64,000 nt of DNA from Blasia pusilla (Eukaryota): contig CM114271.1 in assembly GCA_050084515.1 (NCBI GenBank), forward strand, positions 40,796,001 through 40,860,000, given 5' to 3'. A model generated the notes under the pieces. The model searched no databases. It saw only the letters and a program-made list of their open reading frames with translations, and was not told the DNA's origin. Numbering within the stretch: position 1 is the first letter of the stretch; each line of letters opens with the position of its first letter. The position numbers were made by a program, and so were the translations under genes. Positions 21,639 to 49,099 of the stretch are shown here, in pieces.

Positions 21639-24600
21639 ATGATCCTCTTGGGGATCGAATTCAGTAAATAAATATAAATCTAAAACTCTTGTATATTATA
21701 TGACTATTCTCTCACCCCAATTGGACATCGTGCCAAATACACACCCAGACTCCGGCAACACTCACAATGTATCAAACCAACTACCCATGGTTGGGGGAAG
21801 CCAATCGAAACCGCATTCCTGTAAAATAGATAAGTGATGCGTTTATGATATAGTTTCCCGCTCCCCAAACGGGAAGACTACCTAGTGTGGATGGCGGACA
21901 GGATCCCCATAGGTTGTTTCCGGTTTTCCGTGCACTCTGATTTCCCACGCTCGCCACTTCCCACCGCCTTTACCACTCACTCCATCTCTAACCGGTCCCG
22001 ACAGAAGGCAGAAAGAAAGAAGCGTCGGACAGACGAAGTCATCGTCGGGGAACTTCCGTTCAAGCTGAACGTTGAGCGTTAGTTTGTGTCAGATGACGGA
22101 AGGAGGGAAAATGTGGTCCCCATGTGCATTCTGCCCTCATTTCGCGCACTTGAGTGCCTCGCGAACAGACAGCCACGTGGTGGGACACTGTCACTGTGTC
22201 GAGCAGGAGATGTCACAGTGCTGAGGGTAATGGTCAAGCGATCGTCGGGTGTTTCGACCTGGGCTCGTTAAAGGTGATGGATATATTCGGATCCGGGTTC
22301 GCTAAAGGTCACGTACTCTGCAGGCACCGGTCGGCCGGGCGGACTTATATCTATGGCGTAGTTGAGGTTTTTATTATTGCCCGTTATTATGTTGCGGCTG
22401 GCTATAGTAATTTCCGTAGGGTATGAACTATTTATTTACGAGTTTGTGAAAATTTAGAGAATGATTCTCCACACGATTCTTTGACGGACTAGAAGGTGAG
22501 AGAGAGTGAACCCAGGAGACAAAGTTATTGCGTTCGATAGGAGCTTACATGCTTTAGTTCAAAAAGAGTGACACATGTCAATTATATACAGGTTAAAATT
22601 GACATATGTCACCTAGAGAGATGACACCCTTATAAGGGTACTCTCCCAAATATAGATGAATCCTCCTCCTCCACATATTATTTTGGTTTTCCATAGGATG
22701 AAGAAACATGCTCCTTTTCGGATCTTTCCCATGGAATTGGGACCATTGGAAAAGAAATAGATGGGGAGAAAGTAATTATCAAACATGTGAATAGGCTAGA
22801 TGGCAAGAAAAAAATTAGAAAGAATTTGTAAGGATCGTAAATACAACCAAAATCAATATGTGGGTGATGATGATCCTTTATACGGAGAATCATAATATAT
22901 TTTTTATTCGCTCGTAAGTAAATAATTCATACCCCATGAAAACTATAATATTTATCTGCAAAATACTAGCACATCCTAATAAAAACCTTATAATGGTGGG
23001 AGGGAAGGTTGTTGTAGTGAAAGGATGTTATTCTCAAGCATCGCACAAGTAGCGATGAAGTTTGGGGTGACACGAGTTTATGGATCCACATCTATGCAAG
23101 GGTTCAAATGGTCGCCACATAGATTGTTGAGTCTAGATGTACATGTGATATGGTATTCAAAATGATTACCTGTACTCAAAATAAGGAGTTGCCACAAATC
23201 ATAACTCCCAATATTATCTACTAAAATTAAGATAGATTGTAATATTACAACGTAATCTTTTGCATCATCTTTTGCAATATTTACATGTTCACAACATTGG
23301 TGGGCCTTATGCAAACAATGAGGAATTGGAACTTATTACTTGTTTTAAGATAGACATAACAACAAGCATTCACATGGACGCAAGCAAAAATGCTTCAAAT
23401 TGTGGCAAATGAACACACTATAGGAAAATGAAACATATAAAATTAGGCATTGGAACTATGGTTCTCGTGCATACACATGGAAAAACATTGCACTCAAATT
23501 GATACATAATCGTAATGACAAATATCTAAATCATATGCATGTAAGTAAATCATGAGTGTAATGAACTTTTAAAGATATTTCTAACCGGAAATAAACCATC
23601 CGTAGAAACCCTAAACAAAATTGGAAACATTGAATATAAATTAATCCAAAAAATTAGTGAATTAATAAGAAACTACTGACAATGTAATGGGAAATCTGAG
23701 GCATGTATGAATAAAAAAATGACATTGCATGCCTACAATGTAGCTATCAGAGAATGATTTTTGAGCTATAGACAAATTAACTAGATCGCATAGTCAATTT
23801 TGCTACCTATGTACATTATACATAAGTCGTAGAACCGTTTGCATATGGCCAAAACAAGTTTAAAAAAACGGAAGGTCGGATGTTGTTTGGGTATTTATCA
23901 ACATATCAATTTTCGTGAATTGTGATGAGAGTGTTATAAATTTGCATGAAATAAAGTAAAATTAGCTAAGGGAAACATCCAAAAAAAGAATAAAATCAAC
24001 ATATATAAGGTGTACAATGTAAATACTCACAAGTTGGATGCAACAAAATCCTCATTAAGAGCACTAGTGCTTGTTGGGAGATTCAAGTAGGAAGGGGCCC
24101 TCGTAATTTGATTCATTCTTAGGGCTATGTTCTACCATAGCTTGGTAATTTGGTAAAATTAAGTTGGTGTTGTAGGTCGAGAAAGCAATGGAGAATCAAC
24201 CATCTACCTTTCTTTCCTTATTGCTTTCATGCAAAGTAGCAAGTTTTTAGCCTTGGATGATTGTAGAGATGTAAGTATGTGAATGGGATGTTGGAAACAA
24301 TCCAAGCTCTAAAACAAGCCAAACGTGTTGTAATATAAAGTGGGCAGTTGTTCACAATGTGAATAACATAATGGTGCTACAAATGCTCACTCTTGAAAAC
24401 TGGTACATATGTATGGCAATAAACATGTGGTACCTAAAAAAGGTCACTTAAGAAGATGAAAATTTTACTTGAGAAATAATTTAGAAGAATCAACATTAAA
24501 ACATGGGTTAGTCTCCTAGCTATTTTGTATAGAAGTTGAGAAGTATTTAAGCATGGGAAGCTCATCTATAACAAAGCATTCTATAGTAAAAAGATTGAAA

Positions 24601-25023
24601 TATTGGTTAGATGCATAGATATCTTATGCAAATTATGGTACGTTGCCTTTGACAAGTATTCCAAATGCAATATAGAATGAGCAGTTGTAGCACCATTATG
24701 TAATAAAAAAACAACAATTATAATAGTTGTTGTGAATAGTATTCGGGTGGATTTACTGATTCGACTCATACTTGTGCATGAAATACATGAAAAATATTCT
24801 TCTAGATTTAGGCAAACCAATAAGTAGCTATATGGCAATGAATTTGTGCTTTAGTACATGAAACAAAATTTTCCCTTATCATTGAGGATATCCATAGAAA
24901 ATGCAGCGTAAGGAATAGGAGAGAAACCCTTAGTGGATAGACTATGCTCCTTTATAGGCTCGAATATTGACGGTCAAATGTCAAAGTGGAAGCATGGCTC
25001 AATAAGGCTTATGACTTTGGTGA

Positions 25024-25500
25024 GAATTTGCGGCAAGTGTAGGTTCTAGAGCACACCGCCCGCGTCTTTGGTGGACCAACTTAGTCCCACACGAGGTGTT
25101 GCAGAGGGCGTATGCGCGAGTGGAGCGCCCCTCCCAATTGTTGGTGGATTCCATATTGGATTCGGGTCGTCAATCATAGGCAGTGAGGCACGATGATCAA
25201 CCGTCGTTGATTGTGGTCAATAGGATTGGCATGCCATGGGCAGCCTTTCCCACATTTATGAGTTTTCCCGCTTCCTATGCATTCAAGAAGGACGGACCTA
25301 GCTTGGTTTGGGATGACCAGGTACAGAGGTTGGTGGAGCCCAACGCCGATGAGCGAGAGTGAGAGATGGGATTCCCCATAGGAATGACGGCAGTACAATC
25401 GCTTTCAGAGGCATCACGACGTCATGTCTTCGGTCAAGCAATGGACCTAAACTACTTGACATGGATTTTGAGCTTAGGAATAGTTGAGCAACGTCATTTG
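25024..25500 (+). pseudogene. C-terminal half of a DNMT3-like C5-cytosine DNA methyltransferase domain within a gypsy polyprotein
   Basis: Frame +1 reads AASVGSRAHRPRLWWTNL (motif VIII; cf. DNMT3 SAAHRARYFWGNL), then DSILDSGR, and EPNADERE*EMGFPIGMT...LSEASRRHVFGQAMD (motifs IX-X). Stops at 25177 (TAG) and 25360 (TGA). Confidence 0.8.
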
Positions 25501-27150
25501 AGGATGCGGCAGATCACATGTGTTGCGTTGGTGAGCCCCATGCCTACCGAGACGGTTGAGGCAGAGGTTGGGGGCGAGACGCGAGGAGATTGACATACCA
25601 TGGATGATCGGGAGAGACACCCTTGGACTTCTTGGGATGTTTTGCGGGTACACCATGAGACGGTAGCCACAACATCGAGTGTGGTTTCGGGTACTGCACA
25701 TGGAGATTAGATTTTGCAGTTGGCTGCAGGAGAGCAATCGAGTTGTGTTGTCTGAGACGGGGTTGCACTATAGCAACCATCTACACCTATGCCAGAGAGT
25801 CCTACCGTAGTCATGATGGAGACTTGGGAGCCAGACATGGGCCTTAAGTTGACAAGAGGAGAGCAGTGCCGGATACATCAGTTCCTTAGGAGTTATAGGA
25901 GTTGTTTTGCATTTAGCATGAAAGATTTGGGTACGCGGAAGGGTCCAGGGATCCGCATTGAATTGTCGAGTGACCAGCCAATCTTCCGACTACCCTATAG
26001 GTACAATGACGTGGAGAAGGCTTTGATTCAGAGTAGGAGCTAGGATTTGGATGGAGCAGGACTAGTGGAGATGTCGTATGGAGAGTATGCATCTGCCACT
26101 GTCATGCCCGCCAAGAAGGATGTGCATGGCAACTGGACGGATAGGCGGATGTGTGGAGATTACCAACCTATCAATTGGTAGACAAAGTCCGATATGTATG
26201 CCATGCCCATCCATGAGGAGATATTTGATGCGATTAGGCGTACAAAGATCTTCAATTCATTGGATTTACAAGCCGGATACCATCAGCCGCCTATCAGATT
26301 GGAGGACAGGTAGAAGACGACATTTTGGGGCATCGATCCTCACGGGAAGGATTGTTGGTACCCGTGGCGGTTCTTACCATTCGGGTTAAAGAACGCTCTG
26401 GCTGAGTTTCAGAGGGTCATGGATAGGCTCTTGGCATGGCGTGATTTTTCTAGGTGTTATATTGATGACATCGTAGTCTTTAGGGCCACGGTTGAGGAGC
26501 ATGAGAGACATCAAGAGGAGATATTTCGACGATTGCAGTTACATGGGCTGCAGCTACATCCATGCAAGTACAAGTTCTTCTACAACCAAATTGAGTACTT
26601 GGGTCATATGATATACCCAGGGGGCCTTGGTGTGTAGCAGATGAAGGTAGAGGCTATTTCACGCATTCCACGCCCTACAAATGTGAGTTGAGTTCGTGCA
26701 TTCATGGGATTGGCAAACTTCTATCGATGGTATGTCAAGGGTTTCAATTCGATTGCGAAGCCCCTAACCTTGCTGACCAAGGTGGATCAAGAGTGGCACA
26801 GGGGGGATGAGAAGGAGAGAGCATTTCAGCTGCTCAAGGACAGATTGACTTCCGTGCCCATATTGAGGAGACCGATCAGGGGGCGTCTTTTCCAATTGTA
26901 TATTGATTAGAGCATATTGGGGCTTGGGGCCATGATCACCCAGCATGACGATGATGTTAGAGAGTTTGTGGTGGCTTACGCTGGTCGCTCGAACAACGTT
27001 GCAAAGGCAAAGTATAGCTCGTATGAGGGTGAGTGCTTGGCTGCAGTGTGGGTTGTCGCGCATTTCAGGTATTATCTATTCAGCAACCCCTTAACCATCA
27101 TTACTGATCATCAACCACTTAAGTGGTTGATGGAGTCCGACAAGCTTACA
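25024..27150 (+). mobile_element. Degenerate Ty3/gypsy LTR-retrotransposon pol fragment: DNMT - linker - reverse transcriptase - RNase H
   Basis: RT motifs PIFRLPYR, RRMCGDY, SLDLQAGYHQ, LPFGLKNA, CYIDDIVVF. RNase H motifs FQLYID, YSSYEGECLAAVW, ITDHQPLKWL. All are in one frame with premature stops but no frameshift. Confidence 0.92.
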
Positions 27151-28420
27151 AATCCCATGGCTTCATCTTTAACATACCCTTCTAACATGCAACCCTCTGG
27201 TCTTGCTTTAGACGTGACATGCTTTTTAATTGTTCTCATGTACCTCTCTATTGGGTGCGTCCAGCGACAAGCCACTGGTCCACAAATATCAAGTTCCTCT
27301 ATTAAATGGACAAGTAAATGGGTCATTACGTCAAAGAAGGCAGGAGGAAAGTGCACCTCTAATAGACATAAGATGATAATGGTATCCTCACGTAGTCTTT
27401 TCAAGTTGGGAAGCATCATAGACTTTGACACATATACTTTTAAAGAACCTAATTAACCTCATTATAATCATCCGAACTTCCTTTTTCATGAGGCCACACA
27501 AAGAGTAAGGTAGGATTTGATGAATCAACACATGGTAGTCATATGAGTTCATATTTTCCATTTTCTTGTTAACCACATGTTTCTTCTACTGACCACAATA
27601 CTCCGTGGGCGCTTTCAATTCCTGAATTGTACCAAGAACTATCATCAACTCATGAGGAGACAGTACATAATGTGCAGTAGGTTTCAAAAGATCTTCTACT
27701 CTTTGCAGATGCTGCTGCAACCACGAATGAGGTCGAACTCTTCTTGCCTCCATATCTCTTCTAAACTTGACTATGTCTTTCATTCCAAATATTGTCTTTA
27801 CTAAGTTCCCAACAATGTTATTCTCCACATGCATGACATCCAAGGTATGGCGAATGAGAAGATGTTGATTTTTTATCAAGGAATCTCGTCAAAGACAAAT
27901 GTGAAACCAAAACAAATCCTGATAATAAGACTTTTGTTCAAGGGAAAATTAAGTTGCTAGGATACTTTCCAATAAGGTAAATTGAAGAGAAAACTCCTCC
28001 TCTTGACTCCTATTTTCTTGTATGGGTCTGAAGTACCATCTTCTCGTCCTCCACTCTCGTCATATTCTAGTTTCTCCGGAGTCCAAGCCAGAATCTCCTC
28101 ACTTGTAACTCTTTCTGGTGGTGGCCTTGTTTCCCCTCTACCATTAAAATGGATGCCATACTTCCTACCTCTCCAAGGATGAGTACAAGGCAAGTATCAT
28201 CGATGACCTCCAAAGATGGGTTTGCCACATTCTTTGGAGAAATTTGATTCTATCCGAGGCCCACATGTGGTATACGCAAGCTTCCCACCATGGCTTTGCC
28301 CTGAGATTTTACCTAATGCAGGATAGTCATTGATAGTCCAAAGAATCATCGCCTTAAAAGTAAACTCCCACTGCCCACGAGGTCTTTGAACATCTTGGAG
28401 CACCACTCCCGCCACCACCC
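27151..28420 (-). mobile_element. CACTA (En/Spm) TnpD transposase fragment, pseudogene
   Basis: ILWTINDYPALGKISG (Transposase_21-like), LLIRHTLDVMHVENNI, and LEVHFPPAFFDVMTHLLVHL...GPVACRWTHPIERYM...RPEGCM (DUF4218-like). Confidence 0.9.
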
Positions 28421-28626
28421 CCAGATTTTTGGCACTTTGGGCAAATTATTGAATCTTTCAGATCCCCACGGAACAACACACATCCCATGGGACGTGCATG
28501 ATATGAATCGTAACTCAATCCTAGCTTTCCTATAAGCTTTTTGGCGCGTAATAACTAAGAGGAACATGGTTTTCTACTGGAAGAATGAGTTTACCAAGCA
28601 TCTTCAAGATCTCACAAAGAGCAATG

Positions 28627-29389
28627 TGTCGTGCGCATATACATCGCTACACAATATACATCGTTGTTGACAAACATACACACAAACAAATACGATCCCA
28701 TGCTAATATGACATCCAAAAAACAAGACAAGAAGTACGAAAATATCTCCAATAAAATAGGATCTAATCTCTCTCAACACCACAACTCTCAAATGTGTGCA
28801 CTCTAACATATCTCTCTCAACGTCAAACCCAACCCACTCTCCTAATGAGAGGCTTGGGTTACACTCACAAGGCAAGGGACCATACTCCGCCGCCTCGTGC
28901 CAAGAGGTTCAACAAAGAGCGAATGAGTTCTCAACCTCTCTCTCCTTGAGGTATACCCCCTTCCCTCTCCCAACCTCTCTCCTCGATAACCTACGCTCGC
29001 AGGTCACCTCCTTGGCTCTTGACCTGCTGTAGCGGGTCAAGTGCCACTTCCCAAAGTGAAAATTAAACTCTACCAAACATGGAAACTTACCCAAAATAAT
29101 AAGTTTCTCTATATGGCTCCAAATGAGCCGAAACGAAGGGGAAATCTACTCTCTCACGTTTCCCAGGACCTAAGAAAGTCATCCTTGACCTCCTGAGCCT
29201 GTCCTCCTCTATCCTAAACAATCTGCCAGATAACCTTGATCTATCATAAAAGTCGTGACATCTGTCGTGCGCATATACATCGCTACATAGCATATATCGC
29301 TGTCGACAAAGATACACACAAACATGCACAATCCCATGCTAACTCATGGCATCCAAACAACGAGACAAGAAGTACCAAAATATCTCCAA
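28627..29389. mobile_element. LTR-like unit (28627-29260, TG...CA) directly followed by a partial second copy (29263-~29389)
   Basis: TGTCGTGCGCATATACATCGCTACA occurs at 28627 and 29263. The first unit ends GTCGTGACA. The terminal 10-mer is shared with the chromovirus LTR end at 29643. Confidence 0.55.
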
Positions 29390-29642
29390 CCACCCCCCTA
29401 GTTGATGGTTAGATCCCTCTAACTCCAGATAGCCATCTATCCCTACCTACCATGACATACATCTCTTGGACGCTAAGAGCAAAAAGGTCAGGTGCTCATG
29501 TGGCCCCATCATTAGTCGCCTTCTTGTCATCCATGTCATAGACATAAGTCGGAATCTAGAACTACCTACTCTATGAACATCTGGGACACATCCATCGTCG
29601 TTCAGGAATCCTAGTGAGAGGTGGTGTCAGACATGTCATATT

Positions 29643-30672
29643 TGTCGTGCGCCTACTCTCCTTGAACAGTAATTGTTGTTGTTGCGGAAGCGTGTGTTCA
29701 GTAAGTAGGTCACGCTCTCAACGCTGATCTGCATCCAAATACGCACTCTAGTTAGTCGAGTCTGGATCAATCAGTGGGCTAAATTTCCAAGTTCTCGTCT
29801 CGGTCTCTCATAAAACTCAACCTTCCTAGATTTGCAGTTTACAACATAGGCTAGTCTCGAAAGACTTGGGATAGACTTTCTAGTCGGTTCTGGAACCTCA
29901 AACGGGGTTTCATGCTTGGCGGTTCCAACTGTCCGATGGACATCCAATGAGTCCCTAACCGAGACTCACACAAAATGAATCATGGTTCGGAATCCAAGTG
30001 TGGCGTACAAAGTCCACTCCCTTGGATCAGGTTTGGGTTTCGAGTTCCAACGCCAAACTCCCGTTCCATCCAGTGCCCTTGAGACGCTGTTTGGTGCAAA
30101 AAATGAGGATTCGTGTTCTAAGACATATTGGAGAAACTCCTCCCTTACAAGTACTTGTGGAGATCTCCGGGGTCCCCCTAACTTTAGGGAAGGACAGTTG
30201 GACCCCTCAAAGTGGCCCTCAAACCGATTGCTCTCATAGTCATTTTTTGCCAATATCTCTGTTTTACTCATGCATTTTCTAAGACCTTTGGTTCATTGGA
30301 AGCGCCAAAGAATTATCTTTCCAACGCCCTTATTTGTCCCAAACTCATCTTGGAGCTAAACGTTATGGTCCAAAATACAGTCAACTTCCCCAAACGCTAG
30401 TCGCGTTCCAAAACTGGTTCTCACCTCTTTGGCAACCAACCTTTAAGACTCAACTCATCTCGAGTCTTGGTTTGCATTTGGTTTAGGTTTCTTGGTCGCG
30501 ACCACTAACGCATGAAACACACAACTCCATTCCGCATTTCATCTTGTGGACTTTTCCAAGAGACCTTCCAAAAGCCTCTCCAAAGCGCGATCATCGTAGT
30601 GTGAGTCCACTTGAGTTATGATGTTCCGCTTGGCACCGATTTGGTGTTTGTTTGGTTATAATGGTCGGGACA
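29643..30672 (-). mobile_element. 3' LTR (~1030 bp) of the chromovirus
   Basis: Minus strand runs TGTCCCGACC...GCGCACGACA. It is homologous along its length to the solo LTR at 62232-63243 and is preceded by a PPT. Confidence 0.9.
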
Positions 30673-31365: not shown

Positions 31366-34300
31366 CTAACGTATGTGCCTATCTTGCATCCATTTGAAGT
31401 CTCCCAATGCCTCTTGCGCGTGCTCAAGATCTTCCTCCGCAATCCAAGTTGCCTCTTTCACATGGTGGCTTTTCCACTTGACCAAGTGCTCGTACTCGAT
31501 GGTTCTATGTCTCGAATGCATAAAGGTGCCCATCTCGAACTTTGGTTCCTCATTTTTTATGATCGGTTGTGGTCTCAACACAATCCTTCGTTCCGGACGC
31601 ACATTGTCTTGAAGACACTTCTTCAATAATGACACATGGAAAGTCGGGTGAATCTTGAACTTGGTTGAGGATGTGTACACATCCTCAAAAGGCTTTTCGT
31701 TGATCACATATGGTCCAACATACTTGGATGAAAATTTTGCGGACAATTCCTCCTGAAGAGTGAGATTCTTTACACTCAACCACACTTGCTCCCCAACTTG
31801 GAAACTCACTTGGCGCCAACTTTTGTTAGCATGCTTTACGTATCTTAGTTGAGCCTTGGCAAGACTTATCCTCGCTCTCTCTTATCGTTCATGCATTTCC
31901 ACTAACAAACCTTGTGTCGTTGCTTGACGAGTGTGTGTCAATGTAGCGCCCCTTGAAAGGACCAAGTCAAGAGGCCCTTCTGGTTCTCTATGATACACCA
32001 AAAGAAACGGATGTTCTCCGATTGTAGAATGCTTGGTCGAGTTGTAACAATACTCAACCATACTTAGCCACTTTGCCTAATCTCTTTGGTCCGCACTCAC
32101 GTAATTGCTTAAGTACTAGTTCACGATCGAGTTTAGTTTTTCGGTTTGCCCATCTGTTTGAGGATGGAAGACCGTACTAAAGTTGAGTTTGGTCCTAAAC
32201 CTCTTGAATAGATGTTTCCAAAAGGCACTGGTAAACTTCAGATCTTGATCGGACACAATCCTCCTAGGAAATCCGCGAGCTTGCCACCAACCATCCAGGA
32301 ACAGTCGCAAAGTCGTGTAGGCCATCGCAGAATCTCTCGTCGGCACAAACCTCCCCAACTTGCTAAATCGATCAACTATCATAAGTAAAGCGTTGTATCC
32401 CTCAGATTCTGGAAGACTCGTAATGAAATCCATGCTAATGCTTTGCAAGGGTCCCTATGGGATCGGCAAAGGACGAACGAAGTAAGCCTTGCTTCTTGGC
32501 ATAAGAAACTCTGTTTGTCTGACAGGTCACGCAGGTCTTCACATATTGAGCAACATCTTCTTTCATGTTGGGCCAGAAGAACCTCTTGGCCGAAACAACA
32601 AGAGTGGATTTCTCCCCTTTGTGTCTTGCCAAGATCCATCATGACATTCCACAAACACTTTGGTCCGTAGCTTGCCTTGGCCTACATAGATCCTGCTCTA
32701 CTTAACCTTAGCAAGGTGTGCCTCAAACTTAGATTGGCCACCTTCTCGCCTCGCTTCAACTTCCCAAGGCACTCACTCGCTTGCGCATGCTTCATGTATG
32801 CTTCACGAATCCTTCTTTCCAGATCTGTTTCATTAGGGAACATTGCTCTCAAGACTTGTGTCCTCGATGGCATATGCTTATCCCTATGACTTAACGCTTC
32901 TAGAATGATATTGTCTTTCCCCGACTGGTTGATAAGCTCCAAATTTTTCAATGCCAAGGTATCATGCCATGGAAGTTGCTTCGGTGTTACGCAATCCCGA
33001 GTCTCAAAATACTTGAGCGATATGTTATCCATGAATACTCGATTCTTGTAAAGTCCCAGATAGTGACGCCACTTCCTCGAGAAATGAACCGCCACAAACA
33101 ACTCTTTCTTATGAGTGGGCTATCTCCTTTCGGTATCGCTAACTTTCTTTTTCTCGTATGCTTACAAGTCTCCTTTTTGCACCAATATTCTTGTAATCGC
33201 GAAATCACTAGCATCAGTGTGCACCTCGGACGGTTGGTCAAACTCTGGTAGCTTCAAAACTGGTTCCTGCAAGAGGATCTCCTTGACTCTGTTGAACACT
33301 TTATCCACTTCCTCGATCCATGTTGTGTTGGCAAACTTGGTGGTCCAATCTGTGAGAGGTTTCACTATTCCCAGAAGTTCTTCACCTATGTCCGGTAAAA
33401 TTGGACCGCTCTAATGAATCTCCTCATCCCCTTCACAGTGGAAGGCGGTTCCCATTCGGAAATCGCGCTTACCTTCTCCATGTCTGGACTCACTCCATCT
33501 GCACTAACCACATACTGCAAGAACTTGATCTTTGTCAAACCGAACTCACTCTTATCCGCATTTGCATACAGCTTGTTCGCCCTGAGTTTTTCAAACACTG
33601 TCTTCAAATATCGAGCGTGCTTTTCTAATGTTTTCGAATAGATGAGTATGTCATCTATGTAGATGATCACAAACTCATCAGTCTCCTTGTGAAAGATGGA
33701 GTTCATCAAAGTGGTGAATGTTGGAGGTGCATTACAAAGACCGAAAGGCATTACCACAAACGCGAACGAACCGTATCTCGCCTTACACGCAGACTCTTCT
33801 CTACATGCGCTTCCGCAATCCGAATCTTATAATATCCTGATTTCAGGTCAATCCGGCTGAAACACTTGGCACTTGATCATCGATCAAAGAGGTCATCCAT
33901 CCTTGGAATAGGATAGTTGTTCCTTACCGTCACTTTATTCAGCGCCCGGTAATCAACACAAAGTCTCAACTTTCCATCTTTCTTCTTCACAAATAGAACG
34001 GGCGCTCCATAAGGTGACTTGCTAGTTTGGATGTAACCTCTCTTTAGGAGTTCACCCAACTCTTTCTTCAACTTAGCAAGTTCTTCTTGATTCAACCTAT
34101 GTGGTGCCTTTGAAGGTGTTTGAGATCTGGGTATCACCTCTATCTTATGATCAACTGCCCTATATGGCGACAACTCAGTTGGAAGCTCCTTAGTCAACAC
34201 ATCTTCAAATTCTTTCACAACTCTCTTGAGTGTTTTAGGAATTCCCCTTGAAGCCGAGCTATGATCTCTGCACCTCGCGCTTGCATCATCATCTACTTGT

Positions 34301-34575
34301 CTCATCAAGCAAAGGAATCCTTCCTCTAACTCAGTCAAACTCGTACTCGTGATGGTGTTCATCAACTGCGTCTTTCTAGGAACCTCAGGAACCAATCTGA
34401 CGTCCGTCCATTTACCGCTAACCAAGACGCTCAACCTCAAATGTCTTTGCCTTAGTTCCACCTCATACGCATCCAAGAACATATTTCCCAAGACTCCATT
34501 GATTCCGTCCATCTCGCAATCTGTGAAATTTTCCTTCAACTCGAATACTCCACATCCCACAACTAACCCTAAAAC
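31366..34575 (-). pseudogene. Chromovirus (Ty3/gypsy) pol: protease tail, RT, RNase H, integrase, chromodomain; 5' truncated and frameshifted
   Basis: [84 protein letters not shown], and chromodomain LVKWKSHHVKEATW. Confidence 0.93.
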
Positions 34576-35249
34576 GGGGGCTGGTATTGAGGCAGGAGAG
34601 AGGGAGAGAGAAGAGGAAGAGAGGAGAGTCTCTCTTTAAAAAAAAAAGGGCCAAATCCGCCTCCTCTCTTCAAAAAAATTTTACATATTTGAAATTTTTT
34701 TTGCTTTCAAATTCATGAAATCTTTAGAAGAGAGTAGGTAGTGGTCCACATTCGGGCCTAAAGAAACCTCCTTTTTCCAAGGGGCGAAAAACAAGTAGAC
34801 ATCATAAGACCACTACAAACATTTTCCCATCACTCTCCATGTGAGCCTAAGTTTTTTCACGCTGTCTCGCCTCTGATGGCAATGTGCCTGGGCTATTTTT
34901 TTTTGGAGGACCATTGGCAAATAATGTGATCAGAAGTAGCAATCTCATCTCAATGAAAGGTTCAAATAAAGACCAACTTTGTGAAATGTGAACATAGAAG
35001 ACGATAATTGAACCAAAACATTGTTAGTTGTTTGGAATAAAGAGGAACTGATGTCCCTTCATTCAGATCCGAAATCTGAGAAACTGAGAAGCTGCACCCT
35101 TCCCAATCCGTCGGAGTTTTACATGTTGCAACTCTTGCAACCCATCGGAATCAGATGGCTTGCACCCTTTGCAAGCAAGCTCACCATAACAAAGGAAAGA
35201 TTTTGAGAAGTGATTCCATTCCACCCTGCACCCTCGAAGATCCAATTGG

Positions 35250-36380
35250 TTGGGAATCCGAAATGGCAATCCGACAAGCTTTAGGAATCCAACACGTCTT
35301 AGAGAAGAAAAGAAGCCTACGACTGGTTTGACAATACTAGGGGAACGAGCCAAAAGTGAAGAAGTCCGTCAGAATGCCTCAAAAGTTGGTCTCATAGGGA
35401 AAGAGTCCGATCACTCAAGCAGCCAACCTGTCGGAATCCGACAGCTTGCTTGGAAATGGTTAAAAAGTTGCAATGGTGAAAAAGTGACAAGTTGCAACCC
35501 GTCTGAATCAGACAGGTTGCAAAATAAACATTCTAAGTAGCTAGACGAACACAATCGACAAGGTCACAAAAAATATTCAGCAAAATTTTACAAACACCAT
35601 TATCGTTTGAAAAAATCTTGTCCCTTATTACATCCGAAGGAAGCTCGGAAACGATCATTTGATCTAGTATATGATTTCTTCAGCCTCGTCATCTACAAAT
35701 TTACTCCTAACTCTCCTAGGTTCCTGTACAAAAGGAATGTCGTGGGATACAAGTGGCTCCTCTGGCCAATTGTAGACGGGGATCGAAAATATTGGCGAAT
35801 TCGAGAGCCTTGGCACCCCCTTAGGTACACCATAACGGTCCCATGTAACCTGATTTGAGTCCCACCGCCTTCCTTGGCAGTAAATCTTGTACGCTCTGCA
35901 ATATGACACCCATCCAGTATCAATATGTGCTCCGTCCTTGGAGACACCATCATGTCCTCAGCCAGGTAGTAGGAATCCAACACGTATTAGAGAAGAGAGG
36001 AAGCGTAAGACTTGTTTGACGAAACTAGGGGAAGGTGCCAAAGTGAAGAAGCCCACCAGAATGCCTGTAAAGTTTGACTAACAGGGAAAGAGTTCGATCA
36101 CTCACGCAGCCATCCTGTCAGAATCCGATAGGTTTCCTGGAAGTGGTTAAAAAGGTGCAGTGGTCAAAAAGTGAAAAGTTGCAACCTGTGGCAATCCGAC
36201 GGGTTGAAATATGAAGTGTCAGAGTACATAGACGATCACAATCGACAAGACCAAAAAAGATATTCAACAAACTTTTACAAACACCATCATTGTTTGAAAA
36301 AATCTTGTCTTTTATTACATCCGAAGGAAGCTCAGAACTGTACATTTGATCTATTCTATGAATTCTTTTGCCTCATCAAA
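35250..36380. repeat. Subterminal direct repeat (~690-bp period) in the left arm, mirrored at ~50000-51110 in the right arm
   Basis: GGAATCCAACACGT..TAGAGAAGA at ~35284 and ~35972. AAACACCAT....GTTTGAAAAAATCTTGTC at ~35592 and ~36279. Confidence 0.8.
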
Positions 36381-36434
36381 TAAATCCCTACTCCAAAACG
36401 CTGCAATCAAGCACGGTCCTTGAGTACTTTGAAC

Positions 36435-39400
36435 TCACTCTTCATCGTCTGAGAGCTCCTCCAGAATCACTGTCAGCCTTGCCCTCCCGATTGTTTGAAT
36501 TGTGGGAAGTGACGATGGTGTCACTACCAATGGTGGGTCTCGAACCGGAGCTGTCGGCTTCGAAGGAGAGTTGTACTAGCAACAGGCTAGTTGGAGGCCC
36601 CAATTAGCATGTCGTAATGTGCCTTTGCCTCTTTGCAAAGGTCAAACAATTCCTGCCTTCCCTCAAGGCAAAGAATGTTCCTGCCACTTTGCCAGGCGCC
36701 TCTGATACTCGCCCCCGAAAGGCCCACTAAGTCGAACACCAAGTCACCCGGCCTTGAGCAGAGCTCAATTAGCGTTTGCATCAGCACCGTCAACTTTTCC
36801 CTTCCTCCAAGTAAGGGGATACCATTTTCCATGTAAATTCCTGGGGAGGAAATGTATAAACTATCTAAGCTGTACCCATCAGAGCATGGATCCATTGGAT
36901 CGAGGATCTGAAACACTTGGAAGTTGTGCTCATGCCTTACAAAACAGTAGACAAAGGAGTGGTCCATCTGTTAAGAAGTAGGTTTGGAAAAAATGTCAAC
37001 AACAAGAAAGAGCTAATTTCAGTATGCAACAACAAGAAAGGTATACTATTAGAATGGTGACACAATGTGCAACTCGTTCCCAAAGAACTTTGCTTAACCC
37101 CAGAGAACTTAGTTATAGTCCTAATATTGGAGCAACCTGTTGGAGTCCAACGGGTTGTTTTACAAGTGTTAGTGATTTTTTTTGCCATTAGCAACCCGTC
37201 ACAAGGCGACAGGTTGCTAGCTTAGAGCAGCCCATGGTTGGCTAAGAGCAACCTGTTGATTCAGACGCGTTGCATCATTCTAGATACACAAAGAAAAGCA
37301 TAAGCACTTGCAACTCGTCGGGTTCCAACGGGTTGCATTCACCCAATGGAGACTTGCAGTAAATTTGCAACCCATCGCTTTCAGATGGATTGCACCACCG
37401 AAGTCTCCAGCTCAGAAAATCCGATGGGTTGCATGCAGAGATGCAACCCGTCGGAGCTAGAAAATATGGATATGGATTTAGAGGCCTTACCTGGATTTGA
37501 CTCGTCGCGGATCAGAGTGGGTACTCGTTCTTGATGACCCACGATTGCGTCGTCCTTCACTTCAGCGGCGTCTTGACGCACTGCAGGTTGAAGAGCTCGT
37601 CTTGGCTCCCTCCAATCAAAACCAAGAAACAGCCCTTGTCACTGAGATAAGCGTTTGCAAAGGAAAACATGAGTGCGATCTGGTCATAAGAAAGAGGGAC
37701 ATTCTAGTCTGGGACACTGTAGAACGGATGCTTGTCCCACAAGCGCAACCTCGAGGGCAAATCAGCGACAAGGAGATCCACCGCGACCTCCTCGACCTCC
37801 CCATGGACCGTCCAAGGAGCGTGCCCGTTTTGTTGAATCTTCCGTCCCAGCGTTGTCAATTTGTCGATGGTGGGTGTCGACGCTTGGGAACTGAAACTTT
37901 TCAGCTCATCCAAAAGATTCGTGCAGTGAATGATGACGCTTGTCCGGGTCGTTGTTGATCTATGTCTTCCCAAGGATGATGGAGTGTATTCCACATCCTG
38001 GTCTGCTTCCTGGGACAAACCTGGTGCCTCTCGCTTCCGCTTCTCCCAAGTCTGCGATCGACTTGTTGGGGTCTCTATTACCTCATACTCTGGTGGAGTG
38101 TTTTTTGCGGAGGACCTGATCCAATCCTCTCTTTCCACTTGCCCGGAAGATTCCGCCCCTTGCCTTGAATTCTCAGCCTCCTTTTGGGAAGACTCGGCCT
38201 CGGAATTCTTTGATCCCCTCGCCTTGGGTTTGAGACCCGCCATAGATTTTTCCTTGGCGGTGACGACCTTGGACACCAACTCCGTTGTCTCGATGGCTTG
38301 CTCCTCCGCATCTCCTTCGAAAAAGTCTTCAAGTTGCACAAAATTGGGGATGTCGTCCCTACCTGCGGCCACTACATCACTGAGCATGCGTAGATTTTTA
38401 TCGGTTATGTCCTCAGGATCGTTGAAGTCCAGCCAGATCGGGCAATTCTCCACCTCCCAGTCGGACATGCTTTGAGCCATCTCCATGTCGTACATGGAAA
38501 ATGTCTCTCCATTAGGCGGAGAAGCCCACAATTTGCAGGCTGCCGGTATTTTTTGCCACCTACTTGCATTCTTACAATGGACGAGGTACCTGATCACCAT
38601 GTGTTGGGCAACTCTTAGTCGACATGCATCGGCCGCCTGCTCCTGAAGATCTTGCTTTTTCTTTGCGAAATCCCTTTTCCTTCACCTCTATTTCTTCATC
38701 AAGGTCTGCCTCATGGAGGATGTGATCCTTGAACATCGTCCTGAAGCCTAGGTTTTTTATGGGCTTGTCCCGCATGTCATCCAGCCAAAGTTTAAAATCT
38801 TCAGCACTCTCTAGGTTTACTTCCTGCGGAACAACCTCTATTTTTTTCAGCTCTGCTTGGAGGCCCACGAGCATGGACTTCCCGAGAAGCCGCAACGCGT
38901 CCCAGAATGACCATTCACGGAGCCCGTGGGAGATCACTGGATCAGAGACACCTAGAGGATGCTGTACCACCCTCTTTTGGGCCTCTATGCCCTCGAGACT
39001 GATTTTCATTAGTCGGATTCTCCTAAATTCCGAAATTCCAGACAAGGCAAATCAATGGACACGTTCGAGAGATACTTTCTCCCCAATCCGACCGTGCGGA
39101 TCTTCATCCCTCTTCCGCTGGCGCTTGATTATCGCCTTCAGCTCCTTGTAGAAATCGGGGCCAAGTTCGGGGTTGAGAATGGCGATATAGCGCTGCATCT
39201 TGCTTGCAGTGTACTTCGTAGCTCGAGATACTACAGTTTGGATAAACTTAGCACGCTCAGACACAAACACTTTCTCCCTCCGCTCCAGCTCCAATGAAGC
39301 GCTCTTCTTGGCGGCCTGTATCTTCGACCAGCAAAGGATTGTCAGGGCTGCATCTTGGGAAATAAATGTATTTTCCCAAGTCTTTTTTTTTATTTGAGCC

Positions 39401-39584
39401 CCCTTCGCCAGCATCTCATTTACAAGGGCGTCGCCCAAGAACATGTGGTTTCCACTCTTGAACTGGGTCCACGCCATGAACTTGTGGTTTCCATCCCAGA
39501 TGAAGAAATACAGGTTCCGCATCCAACTCAATTCCGTCCCCTCAATCGCCCTTCTGAATTCATGATCTCTCATCCTCCAGAATG
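36435..39584 (-). pseudogene. Left-arm copy of the ParB-like + N6A/N4C methyltransferase-like gene (5' truncated, internal deletion, intron 37490-36968)
   Basis: FFIWDGNHKFMAW; VDLLVADLPS; REKLTVLMQTLIELCSRPGDLVFDLVGLSGASIRGAWQSGRNILCLE. Colinear with the right-arm gene. Confidence 0.75.
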
Positions 39585-39979: not shown

Positions 39980-42900
39980 TCAAAGTGGTTTGTTTAAAAT
40001 ACTTCGCACTTCTTTAAGGGACAGAATTGGTTGGTGGATTCCTACTCCTACCTCCGACTCTCTTAAAACTACCAGCAACACATAGTACATGTGCTTACAA
40101 GGGAAATACCTTTTGCCACTTGTCTCTCTTTGGACAAAGTCATCACATGAACATGTGGGAAAGCAACAGATGTGCACCACATACATCCCTGTGACTCTTG
40201 AATTTACAGTGTTGTTCCTGACCCAATACATCCTTCCTATTCCATTGCCACTCAAGACATCTTTCGTGGCGATGATCTACATTTTTGCCTCTCGAGCTGA
40301 TGCAATTCGCTTTGCTCTCTCCATCGTTGGCCAACACATTCTGTTTCTCTTCACCCCATTTCTAGACTCAAACAGAAATAATGGATTGAGATCATCCACC
40401 TTCTCCGGGTACATGTTGACATCAATCTTGGGTTGAATACGAAATACGAAGGTCTCTGTAATGCGAACATGCTCCGAACTTCCCCCGTCTACGAGTCTGA
40501 AACCGGCACTTGTAAGATTGTCCACTTCGTCTTGAGTGTAGTTCGTACCTGCGGCGATGGGCCAAATCGTGGGGGTATTCCCCAGAGCTCCAATGGCAGC
40601 CGCATAAGACTTCCGGAAAGCGCAAGATTCATTTGGGCAGAAGAAGTACTTCAATTGATCCCCGGTCCTCGTGAAACGATCAAAGTTTTTGAGTCCCCAA
40701 AACCCAGGCAATGGTCGTCCAGTCCTTGTACAGTTCTTATTTAGGAAAGTGCCGCATGCTCTCCTAATGCCATCAGATCTTGCCCTGCAGGTGAGTCCGC
40801 GTCCTGGGTTACTCTGAGATATATGCCACCGTTTTAGGTTGCAATCCACCTCCATTACCGGAATCCCATATTGTTGAACCACCGTAGTGACAGGATGTTG
40901 CGAACTTCCAGAAACAGAGGGCTTTTGAAATAAAACATTCATTGATTTTGGAGAAGTTACTCCATCACGGATTTGGGATGGGTCCGGGGTCCCCGAATAC
41001 CTGGGCGGCGTAATTTCCTCATCCAAATCAATCACCGGATTCCTTCCTCGATGCTGCCTCTTCACCTGCCTGAAGTCAAGATACTTATCTGATCTCCAAG
41101 TCTCACGGGATCGCTCTACCACCATCTCAGATGGGGACGTCTTGAAACCTGCCCACGAATATCCCCACCAATGTTTACGTCTTGCTCGAGGGGAGTTCCA
41201 GCTACGCACCGGTTGAAGGCTTCCACATACATTTTTCATCACCAGATCTCACAGCCGCCCTGACATAGAGCTCGTAGATCGACGGCCCCCTTCCTTTTGT
41301 TATGCCTTTTGTGAGGAAGATATGGGATGCTGCAGACTGTAGCATTGCTCTTGCCTAGTCTTGTTGGCATGCCTCCACAAGTGAAATTCGTAGGCATGCT
41401 TGTGACGACCTCCACGAGGAATGAACACTTTCTGCTCCACTTGTGTTGGGACAGAGGGCATTTTCATGAACGTTCAATCCCTACAACGACGGCAATGTTA
41501 GAAGGGAACAAAAATAACTCAGCAGTCAAAGACATAAGCTACCTGTCGGAACCCAGACGGGTTGCAAGGCCGAGGCATCCCATGAACGACTCTACGACCC
41601 GTCGGGTCCCGACGCGTTGTAACCTTAAACCCACCTACTGCAACCCGTCGGAACCAGACGGGTTGCAAGGCCGAGGCATCCCATGAATGACTCTGCGATC
41701 CGTCGGGTCCCGACGGGTTGCACACTCGGGTTGCACCAAAAATTTGGATGCAACCCGTCGGTTTCCGTCGGGTTGCACACTCGGGCAACCCGTCGCATCC
41801 GACAGCTTGCTTGGTTTTTTCGATTTGAAATCCCTATAGTTCCCACGCTTCTCACCCTGAGCTACAACTTTACAAACAATTCTCAGCGTGAGCTTGACAA
41901 GACAAAATAGTGAACTCACCTACCGCATGAAGTTTCCCCATTGTCTCATACGTACAGTCCACCAACTCAACCAAGAGCACAACTCTTTGTACTTCCCCTC
42001 AATAGTTCTTCCTGGCATTCCATGGCCTGCTTCAAGGTTTTGTTGTCCTTGCAGCGTTGGAGTAGAGTGGCATGCTCTGTCCTCTTATTCTCCTTGATGC
42101 AAGATTTGGTGTACCGTGTCATAGACTGTTGCCAGTGGAAAGCATCCGACCTTTCCCTCTCCGGTTGAATCTCTCCACCCCATAACACTTCCCGGATAGC
42201 AATCCACCCAGGTTGTGCATTGTCTGCCATGAACACATAAATTTCCGGAGGTGGCCTTTTGTTTTCCTTCACCACCTCCAATAAGAGTAACCAGCACATC
42301 TTCAAACTGCCAACGTCTTCTGCCTTTACTTCACAGACAAATATAGTTTTGAGTCCCTTCTCCACATGGTCATAAACGTGAGCACCCATCGTCAACCATC
42401 CATTTAGCACTCTGGAGCAAATATCAAAGCTTACCCAGCTGCCATAAAGATCTTCCCCTTCCCTCATTCGATCTATAAGATCGAGGCCACTCGACGGACA
42501 TGTGGTTGACATTTTGAAGACATAGGCCCTGGATCCCTCGCCTCCTTGGCCCATGAACTGCCATCTCTGAATGAATGGAAATCTAGAGTTGGCCTTGATT
42601 CTGGCGATGGCATCCATTTCGGCCATCTTTCCATCCAGAACTCGTATTTGACGTAGCAAATTCCAGAAGCATTCAGGATGAGCGAGAAATGCGAGATTTT
42701 CCCATAGTTGTTTCTCCTCAGCCGCCGTGATCTCACCCTGTCCAGGGATTCCAAACAATTGTTCACAAATTTGTGATGTCGTTGTGAGCTTGATCACTCC
42801 GGGCTTTGAACCCGAAGAGTTTCTGTAGACCTTGTCAACTTTCTTCGCCACATCCTCCTTGATGTGTCTCTGAATTGCATCGCTCACAGGATGAGTGTGG

Positions 42901-43910
42901 GAGCCAACATGAACTTCCAGCCTTGTGTACTCTGACGTGGAGCCCAAGTCGTGGACAATGAAAAATATGTATGCAGGACACGCTCCAACGCAGAAGGGCG
43001 ATGCCTGACAATGAGGACATCGATGGCCTCCCGGCGGTATGGTGGCACCGACCTCGTATGGAGTTTCTGCATTCTTGGGGGGGAATTGCGACGTATTGAC
43101 TCGCCCGTTGCGCTCTAGATACGGGCATGCTGGACTTCTACACTCCAAGGCTCCCACGCATTGGCGGCGGGAGACAATCCAAGGACCATCTGGAATTGAA
43201 GCACTAGTCCGTTGAAGCCTGCACCATCGATGACAATCGACTTTTCGCCCATACCCTTTCAGCGCCCTCCATCTTTCTTTTGAGCAGGAGCAGCAAGTGG
43301 AGGCAACTCAAAAATGGAATTACCATCGTACGTGGGCGGCAACTCGTCATCAAGAATGTGCTTGAACATTTTCAAGGCCAGAGACAAAAGCAAACTATTT
43401 TGCCTGATACTCGCAAGAGGAACGAGTAGGCGGACAGAGGGCCCGGTTGGTGTCTGACAGATCCACTGAGGTTGATAACATCCGGAATCTCTTCAGGAAG
43501 AACAACATTGATACGAGCGTGTGAAGTTGGAGTGGAAGCCGGATCTGCAGAGCTTGGAGTTGCAAACGTAGAGCTCGGAGCACTAGGAAATTCTAGACCG
43601 TCTACTTGGGAAACAGACGAATTGGGCAAAAGGGGCCCGTAAACTCAGATTGACCATTTGCTAGAGGTAGGAGATTCCATACTTTACGGTCTGAGGTCAC
43701 TGGTTGGACGGTCTCACCTATTATGTCTTCCGTACCGTCCACCCTAACATCTTTGGATACAAAGATGGTTCCAATTTGGAGAAGAAATCGAACAGAGAGA
43801 AAATTTTCATCCACTGCTATGAAAGACTCTCGAGCTTGCGGTCGAATGATTTCTGATTGAGGAAGGGCCGCCAGATGACTGCCACAAGTGAGCTTAACAT
43901 AATTATCCAT
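39980..43910 (-). pseudogene. Mutator-like (MULE) DDE transposase with an N-terminal GCM-like Zn domain and a C-terminal SWIM finger; one intron (~41918-41482); several frameshifts and stops
   Basis: CVGALECRSPACPY...CPHC...C...HVGSHTH. Catalytic WVSFD, FMADNAQ...AFHWQQS, WLSWWTVR, PNTSGAESVHSSW. SWIM CSCDDF...CKHMYYV. Confidence 0.8.
41500..41810. repeat. Palindrome cluster in the transposase intron
   Basis: Multiple GCAACCCGTCGG-n-(T/C)CGACGGGTTGC variants, including a ~110-bp internal duplication. Confidence 0.85.
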
Positions 43911-46980: not shown

Positions 46981-49099
46981 GTTTGGATGTGCAGGATTGT
47001 ATCGGAGGGTAATGTCACCCACCACTGGATCCAAGATTGCGATCGGGTGAAGAAGGTGCTTACGATGCACCCGGGAGAGTACAAGGGGTTCTTGGGCGAC
47101 GCCCTGGTAAATCAGATGCTTGCAAAGGGTGCTCAGATAAAAAAGAAAACTTGGGCAAATAAGTTTATTTCCCAAGATGCAGCCGTAACCATCCTTTGCT
47201 GGTCGAAGATACAGGCCGCGAAGAAGAGCGCTGCATTGGAGCTTGAGCGGAGGGAGAAAGTATCTAGGTCTGAGCACGCGAAATTCATCCAAGCTGCAGT
47301 ATTTGCAGCCACAAAATACACGGCGAGCAAGATGCAGCGATACATCAGCATTCTCAACCTCGAACTTGGTCCAGAGTTTTACAAGGAGCTGAAGGCGATT
47401 ATCAAGCGCCAGCGGAAAAGGGATGAAGATCCGCAAGGTCGGATTGGGGAGAAAGTGTCCTCGGATCACGTGCATCGGTTTGCGGTGTCTGGCATAAGAG
47501 AGTTTAGGAGGATCCGACTGATAAAAATCAGTCTCGAGGGCAGAGAGGCCCAGAAGAGGGCGGCACACCATCCTCCGGGTGTGTCCGATCCAATGATCTC
47601 CCACTGGCTACGCGAATGGTCGTTCTGGGACGCGTTGCTATGGTTATCGGAAGTCCGTCGGACGGTCTGCAAGCAGAGCTCAAAAGATTAGAGCCCATTC
47701 CGGATGAAGCAAACCTGGAAAGTTCTGTAGATTTCGAGGTTTGGCTCGAGGACATCCAGGACAAGCCAATAAAAAACCCAGGATTCAAGACAATGTTCAA
47801 GGTTTGCGTCCTACCTCAAGCAGAGCTTGACGAAGAAATCGAGGGGAACAAACGGGATCAAGCAAAGAAGAAGCGAGATCTACAGGAGCAGACGGCCGAT
47901 TCAGTTCGAGTAAAAGTTGCCCAACGGATGGTCTTCAGGTACCTCGTCCAATGTAAGAATGCAGGTTCCTGGGGAAAATTATCGGCAGCCTTGAAATTGT
48001 GGGCTTCGCCGCCTGATGGAGAGACATTCTCCATGTACGACATGGAGATGGGGCAGCACATGTCTGATTGGGAGGTGGAGAATTGCCCCATTTGGCTTGA
48101 CTTCAACGATCCTGAAGACATCACCGATAAGGATTTACGAGTGCTTCATGATGCAGTGGCCTCAGGACAAGACGACATCCCCAATTTTGTGCAGCCTGAA
48201 GACTTCTTCGGAGGAGGAGATGCGGAAGAGCAAGCCCACGAGACAGCTAAGTTGGCTTCCAAGGTCCGCACAGCCAAAGAAAAATCCACAGCGGGTCTCA
48301 AAGGCAAGGCGAGGGGAGGGAAAAATTCCAAGGCCGAGTCTTCCCAAAGAGAGGCTGAAGATTCAAGGCCAGAGGCGGAATCGTTCGGGCGAGCGGAGAG
48401 AGAGGGTCGGACCAGGTCCTCGGCGAAAAAAAACCCCACCAGAGTCTGAGGTCATAGAGACCCCGACAAGCCGTCCGCAGACTCGGGAGAAGCGGAAGCG
48501 AGAGGTGCCAGGGTTGTCACAAGGAGAATACAGTCCATCATCCTTGGGAAGACATAGACAAACAACGACCCGGACAAGCGTCCTCCTTCAGTTCACTCCT
48601 TTACTGGATGAGCTGAAAAGCTTCAGTTCTCAAGCGTCGACACCAGCCATTGATAAATTGACAACGCTGGGACGGAAGCTCCAACGAAATGGGCACGCTG
48701 CCTGGACGGTGATCTCTTGATCGCTGATCTGCCCTCGAGGTTGCGACTATGGGGCGAGAATCGTCGGACGGGGTACCTGAGTGGAATGTGCCGCTCTCTT
48801 ATGACCAAATCGCGCTATTGTTCTCCTTTGCAGACGCATATCTAAGTGATAGGGGCTGCTTCTTGGTGTTGACTGGAGGGAGCGAGGACGAGCTCTTCAA
48901 CCTCCAGTACGTCAAGAGGTCGCTAAAGTGGAGGACGACGCAATTGTGGATCATAAAAAATGAGTACCCACTCCGATCCGCGACGAGTCAGATTCGGGTA
49001 AGGCTCAATTCCTGTAGTATAAGATCAAATATATTTTCAAATTTGGGTAAGGCTCAATGAGTGTTAATTTCAAATAGTATATCTCCGTTGTTTTTTTCC

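Follow-up and report, generated by a model that had tools for sequence, protein, structure and literature searches.

In this study, we analysed a 64,000-nucleotide (nt) stretch of contig CM114271.1 (the window, numbered from its first letter) and followed up an earlier note on a putative retrotransposon within it. The fragment at 25029-27150 of the forward strand is very probably a dead internal piece of a Ty3/gypsy long terminal repeat (LTR) retrotransposon whose pol carries a DNMT3-like cytosine methyltransferase. It is a pol fragment that reads, in a single frame, through the C-terminus of a DNA methyltransferase (DNMT), a linker, a reverse transcriptase (RT) and an RNase H.

The methyltransferase and the reverse transcriptase belong to one polyprotein

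The earlier note had placed the strings GSRAHRPRLWWTNL, ERE*EMGFPIGMT and SEASRRHVFGQAMD in frame +1 with the YIDD-bearing RT and the RNase H, and our translation agrees. Pfam found RVT_1, RT_RNaseH and RT_RNaseH_2 in the read-through (E-values of 4.5e-20, 3e-23 and 9.8e-23, respectively), in the same frame as the methyltransferase part. When relatives were searched against the window by tblastn, matches appeared in this frame only, from 25030 to 27162. One match of the Sphagnum protein P0172 spanned 25039-26232 and joined the methyltransferase part to RT, which indicates that no frameshift lies between them, as the earlier note had also claimed. The Marchantia protein MARPO_0091s0058 (P0169) matched the window at 25030-25467 with residues 549-694 (57.5% over 146 amino acids) and, in the same frame, at 25825-27162 with its RT/RNase H (60.3% over 446 amino acids). 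Residues 1137-1291 of P0016 matched 25030-25482 with an identity of 45%.

The domain orders of the relatives agree with a former single polyprotein, since Marchantia, Closterium and metagenome proteins run from DNMT to RT and RNase H and, in some, on to integrase. The order in P0016 is CCHC, protease, DNA_methylase, RVT_1, RNase H and integrase, and P0213 has the same order without a Pfam match for the protease. P0232 has DNMT, RT, RNase H and integrase, P0216 and P0217 have RT, RNase H, integrase and PHD, and the Marchantia proteins P0169 and P0174 (Mp_2g26090) have DNMT, RT and RNase H. In MARPO_0204s0011 (P0170), a gag match too weak for the Pfam cut-off (E 3.5e-4) precedes DNMT. The integrase (rve plus Integrase_H2C2) is listed for P0016, P0213, P0232 and P0214. 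These proteins show that the pol polyprotein of the family runs from gag (CCHC) through aspartic protease, DNMT3-like methyltransferase, RT and RNase H to integrase, which a PHD finger follows in close relatives.

The read-through was compared by blastp with 153 relatives (the 150 best of 686 and three cluster members), and 54 proteins of at least 600 amino acids were listed. DNMT came before RT in 5 of these (P0016, P0152, P0153, P0058 and P0149), RT/RNase H came before DNMT in 28, and 21 matched DNMT only. At E ≤ 1e-30, a search with RT/RNase H returned 534 proteins, and the 120 best were listed. Among these 120, five had at least 400 amino acids upstream of RT (two from Marchantia, one from Closterium and two from metagenomes), and all five carried DNMT, so that the absence of the domain from other copies, which the earlier note had named as a sign of chance, was not what we found. 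Nine of the remaining 115, which have less upstream room, also carried DNMT (3 partial upstream, 6 downstream), and DNMT was absent from two RT relatives with about 320 amino acids upstream and 38% identity. Judged from these sequences, the methyltransferase is an integral and co-inherited pol domain and not a neighbouring host gene.

The fragmentary state of both parts, and the lack of LTRs in the window that would tie them together, might suggest that a piece of a host DNMT3 pseudogene came to lie beside an unrelated piece of a gypsy RT. We believe this to be very unlikely, because the two parts share one frame that the Sphagnum match bridges, occur in this order within individual Marchantia, Closterium and metagenome proteins, and are closest, with comparable identity, to the same relatives. 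Moreover, the depth of reads from the same organism was equally high across both parts and broke only at 25029 and 27150.

The upstream piece continues a DNMT3-like domain

The 159-amino-acid upstream piece was searched with phmmer against 1.84 billion representatives. The numbers of proteins found at E ≤ 1e-3, 1e-10 and 1e-30 were 686, 325 and 14, respectively, and the best relative (E 1.9e-55, 60% identity) puts the likeness far past chance. In two Pfam scans, of 7 and 9 relatives, PF00145 lay directly upstream of the window-matching stretch in 5 and 8, respectively. In an alignment of the window with 11 relatives, the relatives carried DLFGGISTG (which we take to be motif I, as with the other motif numbers of this alignment), AGWPCQGH with the catalytic Cys, and ILENV. 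The window joined this alignment exactly at ...AASVGSRAHRPRLWWTNL and then continued to the end of the domain. On this alignment, the upstream piece is a METHYLTRANSFERASE remnant that continues the PF00145 domain of the relatives.

The earlier note had assigned the piece to C5 methyltransferases of the DNMT3 type, and this assignment held up through the relatives. When profile A1 (8 relatives and the window) was searched against PDB, the E-values of DNMT3A, DNMT3B and DNMT3C were 1.6e-20, 1e-17 and 7e-17, respectively, and those of the lower matches HhaI and DNMT2 were 4e-6 and 1e-3. With profile A2 (66 rows), DNMT3A, DNMT3C, DNMT3B and HhaI had E-values of 4.4e-28, 5e-25, 2e-24 and 4e-9, respectively. 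No DNMT1, MET1 or CMT chain matched either profile at E ≤ 1. Both alignments paired the two conserved blocks of the window with the corresponding blocks of DNMT3A. An AlphaFold model of the relative P0160 made from A2 had a mean pLDDT (predicted local distance difference test) of 85.7 and a pTM (predicted template modelling score) of 0.82. All Foldseek matches listed for this model (to rank 50) were DNMT3A, 3B or 3C (E to 3e-18), with about 320 aligned columns and a target TM score of about 0.8 for chains of the catalytic domain only. The ranking in PDB and the modelled fold of a relative thus support a DNMT3-like methyltransferase in this family. The first AlphaFold model, made from a 9-row alignment, had a mean pLDDT of 42.3 and was discarded, and no search was made with it. 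The protein atlas held only generic 'C-5 cytosine methylase' clusters (one streptophyte, two phage-dominated).

The catalytic domain of mammalian DNMT3A/3B/3C, the best match by profile and by fold, is collinear with the family from motif I to X. The family differs from it in sequence (about 20-22% identity), in a longer insert between the RxR block and the ERExxGF block, and in being embedded in a retrotransposon polyprotein; the relatives scanned with Pfam had no PWWP or ADD match. Plant DRM2/NtDRM was the second-best PDB family (9e-11 with A1 and 1e-15 with A2). However, the DRM match covered only the part of the profile with motifs I-IV and lay at the C-terminal end of the DRM chain, whereas the family is collinear with DNMT3A. 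DRM enzymes have a rearranged motif order, which fits this placing.

The window copy is truncated and decayed

In the read-through of 22000-30501, the only protein-like stretch was at about 25024-27150, and translation gave nothing coding-like in any of the three frames upstream of 25024. Motif I (FxGxG), the PCQ cysteine and ENV are absent from the window copy, which is cut at 25028/25029, and the read depth begins at 25029; the 5' truncation seen in the earlier note is therefore real, and a 3' truncation, which it had not claimed, is also present. No direct repeats flank the fragment, and both of its ends are truncation points. Over 711 codons this frame has 12 stops, and the counts for the other five frames range from 19 to 43. 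Seven of the 12 stops fall in columns that can be aligned with relatives, and at six of the seven the residue in the relatives is Gln, Arg or Trp, a single transition from the stop. The CpG observed/expected ratio of the fragment was 0.68, compared with 0.74 for the window as a whole. We infer that this pattern of stops and CpG fits the ordinary decay of a methylated repeat.

These results indicate that the copy at 25029-27150 is dead, being truncated at both ends and interrupted by 12 premature stops. It is without function and has lost the half of the methyltransferase that binds S-adenosylmethionine and carries out catalysis. No other pieces of the DNMT-gypsy family were found elsewhere in the 64 kb by tblastn with 12 relatives.

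The family is repeated and transcribed in the same organism

When sequencing runs were searched by shared words, the best DNA run contained 0.23 of the words and no RNA run was listed. Sequencing runs of one organism were then mapped on 24000-28200 at a likeness of at least 80%. The DNA contig pieces numbered 38,835 (X1) and 7,640 (X3). The summed contig depth, which is not a copy number, was from thousands to more than 100,000 in the bins of 24987-27242, and was 0-3.3 over 24000-24986 and 1.7-376 over 27243-28200. One 228-nt contig of X3 lay on 24489-24716 with 1 difference, which indicates that X3 contains the window's own single-copy flank. The DNMT-gypsy family is highly repeated in the DNA runs of this organism.

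Beyond 25029, 25 X3 contigs extended upstream, and beyond 27150/27151, 99 (X19) and 100 (X20) RNA reads together with 22 X1 contigs extended downstream. When both continuations were translated by hand in the frame of the element, their residues matched P0157 and P0016 at those points. Therefore, other copies are longer, and this copy was cut at 25028/25029 and 27150/27151.

The RNA reads numbered 1,897 (X19) and 1,718 (X20) and covered every bin of the element, with a depth per bin of 27-165 in one orientation versus 0.1-15 in the other. Reads that were less than 90% alike numbered 1,502 and 1,333, respectively, and only 14 and 16 were at least 95% alike. In addition, 10 (X19) and 18 (X20) RNA reads joined 25938 to 27010, skipping 1071 nt without GT..AG, and 14 and 13 RNA reads were without 21 nt at 26494. 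The reads with these gaps are probably transcribed deletion variants of other copies.

Phylogeny and hosts of the family

Two trees of hand-picked rows (43 proteins and the window each) were built with IQ-TREE in its 'quick' mode, with SH-aLRT support only. The RT/RNase H tree grouped the window with Calypogeia and Marchantia in a clade of 7 rows (98). A split of 27 to 17 rows (100) placed every row known to have DNMT upstream on the 27-row side, together with three Klebsormidium and several Closterium proteins, and every row with DNMT downstream on the 17-row side. The DNMT tree joined the window to Calypogeia, Marchantia and Sphagnum in a clade of 15 rows (100), and the rows with upstream DNMT formed a 28-row clade (99). 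The agreement of the two trees indicates that both domains share one history.

Among 20 relatives of the DNMT piece, 6 came from Marchantia polymorpha, 2 from Calypogeia fissa and 1 from Sphagnum fallax, and 11 were without a name; a second set of 29 proteins contained 12 from Marchantia, 1 from Sphagnum and 16 without a name. The named RT relatives include Calypogeia, Marchantia, Closterium, Klebsormidium and Volvox. The RT identity with Calypogeia was up to 72% among the matches listed, and 74% over 325 columns of the tree. No vascular plant was named among the matches, which is weak evidence since the word filter limits the reach of the search. With liverworts and Sphagnum as the nearest named relatives, the sequences support a bryophyte-like host. 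The land-plant-like genome proposed in the earlier note is in keeping with this, and with the repetition of the family in DNA runs that share the window's flank.

At least 16 protein records of the family come from Marchantia, and some are nearly identical. The end branches of the Marchantia copies in the DNMT tree were 0.004-0.12 overall, and those of the DNMT domains of P0176, P0170, P0178, P0171 and P0163 were 0.004-0.05 substitutions per site. Such short branches suggest a recent amplification of the family in Marchantia polymorpha. One further protein, P0198 (Logan, 2112 amino acids), has a copia-type RT (PF07727, precomputed) and a weak match to the DNMT profile (1.5e-9, 22% identity), and it is possibly a separate copia-borne methyltransferase.

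Comparison with known elements

Studies have shown that retrotransposons can carry C5 methyltransferases. KnitGypsy-Dnmt3 of Klebsormidium nitens and SymbioDIRS-Dnmt3 were described in 2018 (de Mendoza et al., PMC5890265; cited here for its main text). KnitGypsy-Dnmt3 resembles the family in this study in having an un-rearranged DNMT3-like domain in a gypsy-type pol open reading frame (ORF) and a streptophyte host (PMC5890265). Its host is a charophyte, whereas land plants (liverworts and Sphagnum) are the closest named hosts in our data. The Klebsormidium RT proteins on the window's side of the RT tree (P0257, P0307 and P0312) do not include the DNMT stretch, and no DNMT-bearing Klebsormidium protein was recovered among the relatives, so the connection with KnitGypsy-Dnmt3 is made through RT proteins only.

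The green-algal form, seen in the Scenedesmus 'pol' KAF8056149 and in metagenome proteins, has the order RT, RNase H, DNMT, integrase and PHD. It shares with the window's family a homologous DNMT (35-41% identity to the window piece), RT, and PHD after the integrase. However, DNMT stands after RNase H in the green-algal elements and before RT in the window's family, and the branch of the RT tree between the two has a support of 100. In Volvox reticuliferus the DNMT stretch also lies after RNase H, and in Cymbomonas DNMT lies before the integrase, with no RT matched.

SymbioDIRS-Dnmt3 and the EpiLTRs are likewise retrotransposons with a C5 methyltransferase in pol, as far as the available parts of their descriptions go. 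SymbioDIRS elements have a tyrosine recombinase (PMC5890265). EpiLTRs bear, at the pol 3' end, a domain related to DNMT4, together with an adenine methyltransferase and a chromodomain, according to the available part of a preprint (bioRxiv 10.64898/2026.05.21.726589).

The main text of PMC5890265 does not mention Marchantia, liverwort, moss or Sphagnum, and its supplements may list them. Later papers, in their available parts, word the hosts only as 'streptophytes (Gypsy-DNMT3)', and a plant LTR survey, in its available part, is silent on methyltransferase, PHD and Marchantia. No report of gypsy-DNMT elements in land plants was found in the literature, including the available parts of PMC11982613, PMC12344493 and PMC6317226, with supplements and subscription journals outside the scope. 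The element kind has been known since 2018, and we provisionally regard its occurrence in land plants as unpublished.

Points against the interpretation

Several points weigh against the fragment being a dead piece of an LTR retrotransposon with a DNMT3-like methyltransferase. The Pfam check proposed in the earlier note failed, since DNA_methylase (PF00145) did not match the read-through at E ≤ 10, and phmmer with the 159-amino-acid piece found nothing among PDB sequences at E ≤ 10. The methyltransferase assignment therefore rests on the relatives. We did not count this blank as a refutation, because only about 150 C-terminal residues remain. The same blank would suit some unknown pol domain with a fortuitous likeness to DNMT3 motifs, which we consider extremely improbable: the piece is continuous with PF00145 in the relatives, the profiles pair its blocks with those of DNMT3A, and the P0160 model can be superposed on complete DNMT3 catalytic domains along about 320 columns. 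For the DNMT3-like methyltransferase that we favour, the class is a matter of PDB ranking and fold and not of a tree with host DNMT3, DRM, DNMT1 and DNMT4-6. The PDB match list contained no DNMT4-type structure, and a DNMT4-like affinity is excluded only indirectly.

Within the window, this element has no LTRs, primer-binding site, polypurine tract or target-site duplication, and its gag, protease and integrase were not found by tblastn with relatives. 'LTR retrotransposon' is thus inferred from the proteins of relatives. Without terminal repeats here, the family might be DIRS-like or otherwise non-canonical, and KnitGypsy-Dnmt3 has a repeat structure of the DIRS type with gypsy-like domains (Fig. 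4 legend, PMC5890265). We think this rather unlikely, as the relatives encode a DDE integrase (rve plus Integrase_H2C2) and not a tyrosine recombinase, and their RT_RNaseH is of the gypsy type. A true Ty3/gypsy origin is the reading that we retain.

The RNA of the family is apparently in sense, assuming the usual stranded library. Because most of the reads are less than 90% alike, the RNA comes from other, diverged copies, and the transcription is that of the family and not of this copy. The catalytic activity of a gypsy-borne DNMT3 is a prediction, and the one gypsy DNMT that has been assayed, that of Klebsormidium, gave no methylation in yeast (PMC5890265). Human DNMT3B was likewise inactive in yeast, and for this reason the authors called the Klebsormidium result inconclusive (PMC5890265).

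The methyltransferase might also be inert or repurposed (for DNA binding, targeting or acting on RNA) instead of methylating DNA. The inactivity of KnitGypsy-Dnmt3 in yeast speaks for this possibility, to which we give some weight while doubting it. Two observations argue for a DNA-methylating enzyme. All seven aligned copies of the window's clade (P0156, P0157, P0158, P0159, P0161, P0169 and P0171, some with gaps or substitutions elsewhere) retain motif I, the PCQ cysteine, ENV and the RxR block, and the Marchantia copies are nearly alike.

Possible role of the methyltransferase

What a transposon gains from carrying an enzyme that usually silences transposons has been an open question since 2018. 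In intact copies, the methyltransferase would be translated together with RT from the pol frame. The enzyme would then act on the element's own cDNA or on a fresh insertion, as de Mendoza et al. proposed (PMC5890265), and the PHD finger after the integrase would read histone tails and may tether to chromatin. Because the same element kind is present in Marchantia polymorpha, which is transformable and has published methylomes, the question can be tested directly in a land plant. There is also a warning for annotation, as bryophyte gene models named 'DNMT3-like' can be fragments of retrotransposon pol.

A wider proposal is tentative, and we would sooner doubt it than rely on it. Gypsy-DNMT3 may be one old Viridiplantae lineage that captured its DNMT before the streptophyte and chlorophyte forms split, both with a PHD linked to the integrase. 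It may have persisted into land plants, where it would be abundant, recently amplified and transcribed, and it is apparently missing from vascular plants. In this proposal, DNMT and PHD together would form a functional writer-reader module, setting the methylation of new insertions and contributing to bryophyte methylomes.

Features of the fragment

Table 1. Parts of the pol fragment, with the evidence for each.
Feature	Position	Strand	Evidence and remarks
C-terminal ~150 amino acids of DNMT3-like C5 methyltransferase: GSRAHRPRLWWTNL block, long target-recognition-like insert, ERExxMGF and RRxxxGQAMD blocks; 5' cut	25029..25482	+	tblastn, alignment with relatives, family profile against DNMT3A
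GSRAHRPRLWWTNL block	25042..25083	+	Family profile pairs it with SAAHRARYFWGNL of DNMT3A; presumably motif VIII
ERE*EMGFPIGMT to SEASRRHVFGQAMD	25351..25446	+	Profile pairs it with EMERVFGFPVHYTDV...RQRLLGRS of DNMT3A; one in-frame stop; presumably motifs IX-X
ERE*EMGFPIGMT	25351-25389	+	Frame +1
SEASRRHVFGQAMD	25405-25446	+	Frame +1
Linker between methyltransferase and RT, ~125 amino acids, 4 in-frame stops	25483..25869	+	tblastn matches of P0156, P0157 and P0170 extend to 25668-25686
HPWTSW in the linker	25618-25635	+	Common to liverwort copies; P0002 and P0005 end in the same stretch
Reverse transcriptase	25870..26805	+	YIDD at 26458-26469; Pfam RVT_1 at about 26212-26613
Ty3/gypsy-type RNase H (RT_RNaseH_2, RT_RNaseH), 3' cut, no integrase after it	26806..27150	+	Pfam, tblastn, reads
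End of RNase H, DHQPLKWL	27106-27129	+	Frame translation
5' breakpoint	25028..25029	.	Read depth starts; 25 X3 contigs extend upstream unlike the window
3' breakpoint	27150..27151	.	Family depth ends in bin 27102-27242; reads and contigs extend unlike the window
12 in-frame stop codons	25177..26910	+	Starts at 25177, 25360, 25591, 25708, 25753, 25771, 26041, 26179, 26311, 26635, 26689 and 26908

Other features of the window

A second, ordinary chromodomain Ty3/gypsy element lies at 31366-34635 on the reverse strand. Its integrase tail carries SH3_Tf2-1 and Chromo, and it has no methyltransferase. Its RT/RNase H has decayed and shares only 26-37% identity with the DNMT family, whose weaker tblastn matches fall at 32862-34260 (reverse strand). 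Pfam named only this chromodomain/SH3 integrase tail among ten other ORFs of the window.

Two inverted stretches of about 5 kb, at 34692-39442 and 47088-51676, show 78-93% complementarity across 11 collinear blocks. Between them lie about 7.6 kb with long reverse-strand ORFs at 41967-43307 and 40277-41248, which had no Pfam match. The pair may represent a large element of unknown kind in two diverged copies, or else the very long inverted termini of one element. A 952-amino-acid open frame at 3-2858 (reverse strand) runs off the start of the window; it has acidic and serine repeats (direct repeats at 1955-2440) and no Pfam match, and the opposite strand is also open at 1-957. On the forward strand, the open frames at 58400-59071, which had no Pfam match, and at 56780-57232 presumably resemble the tail of a Helitron/PIF1-type helicase.

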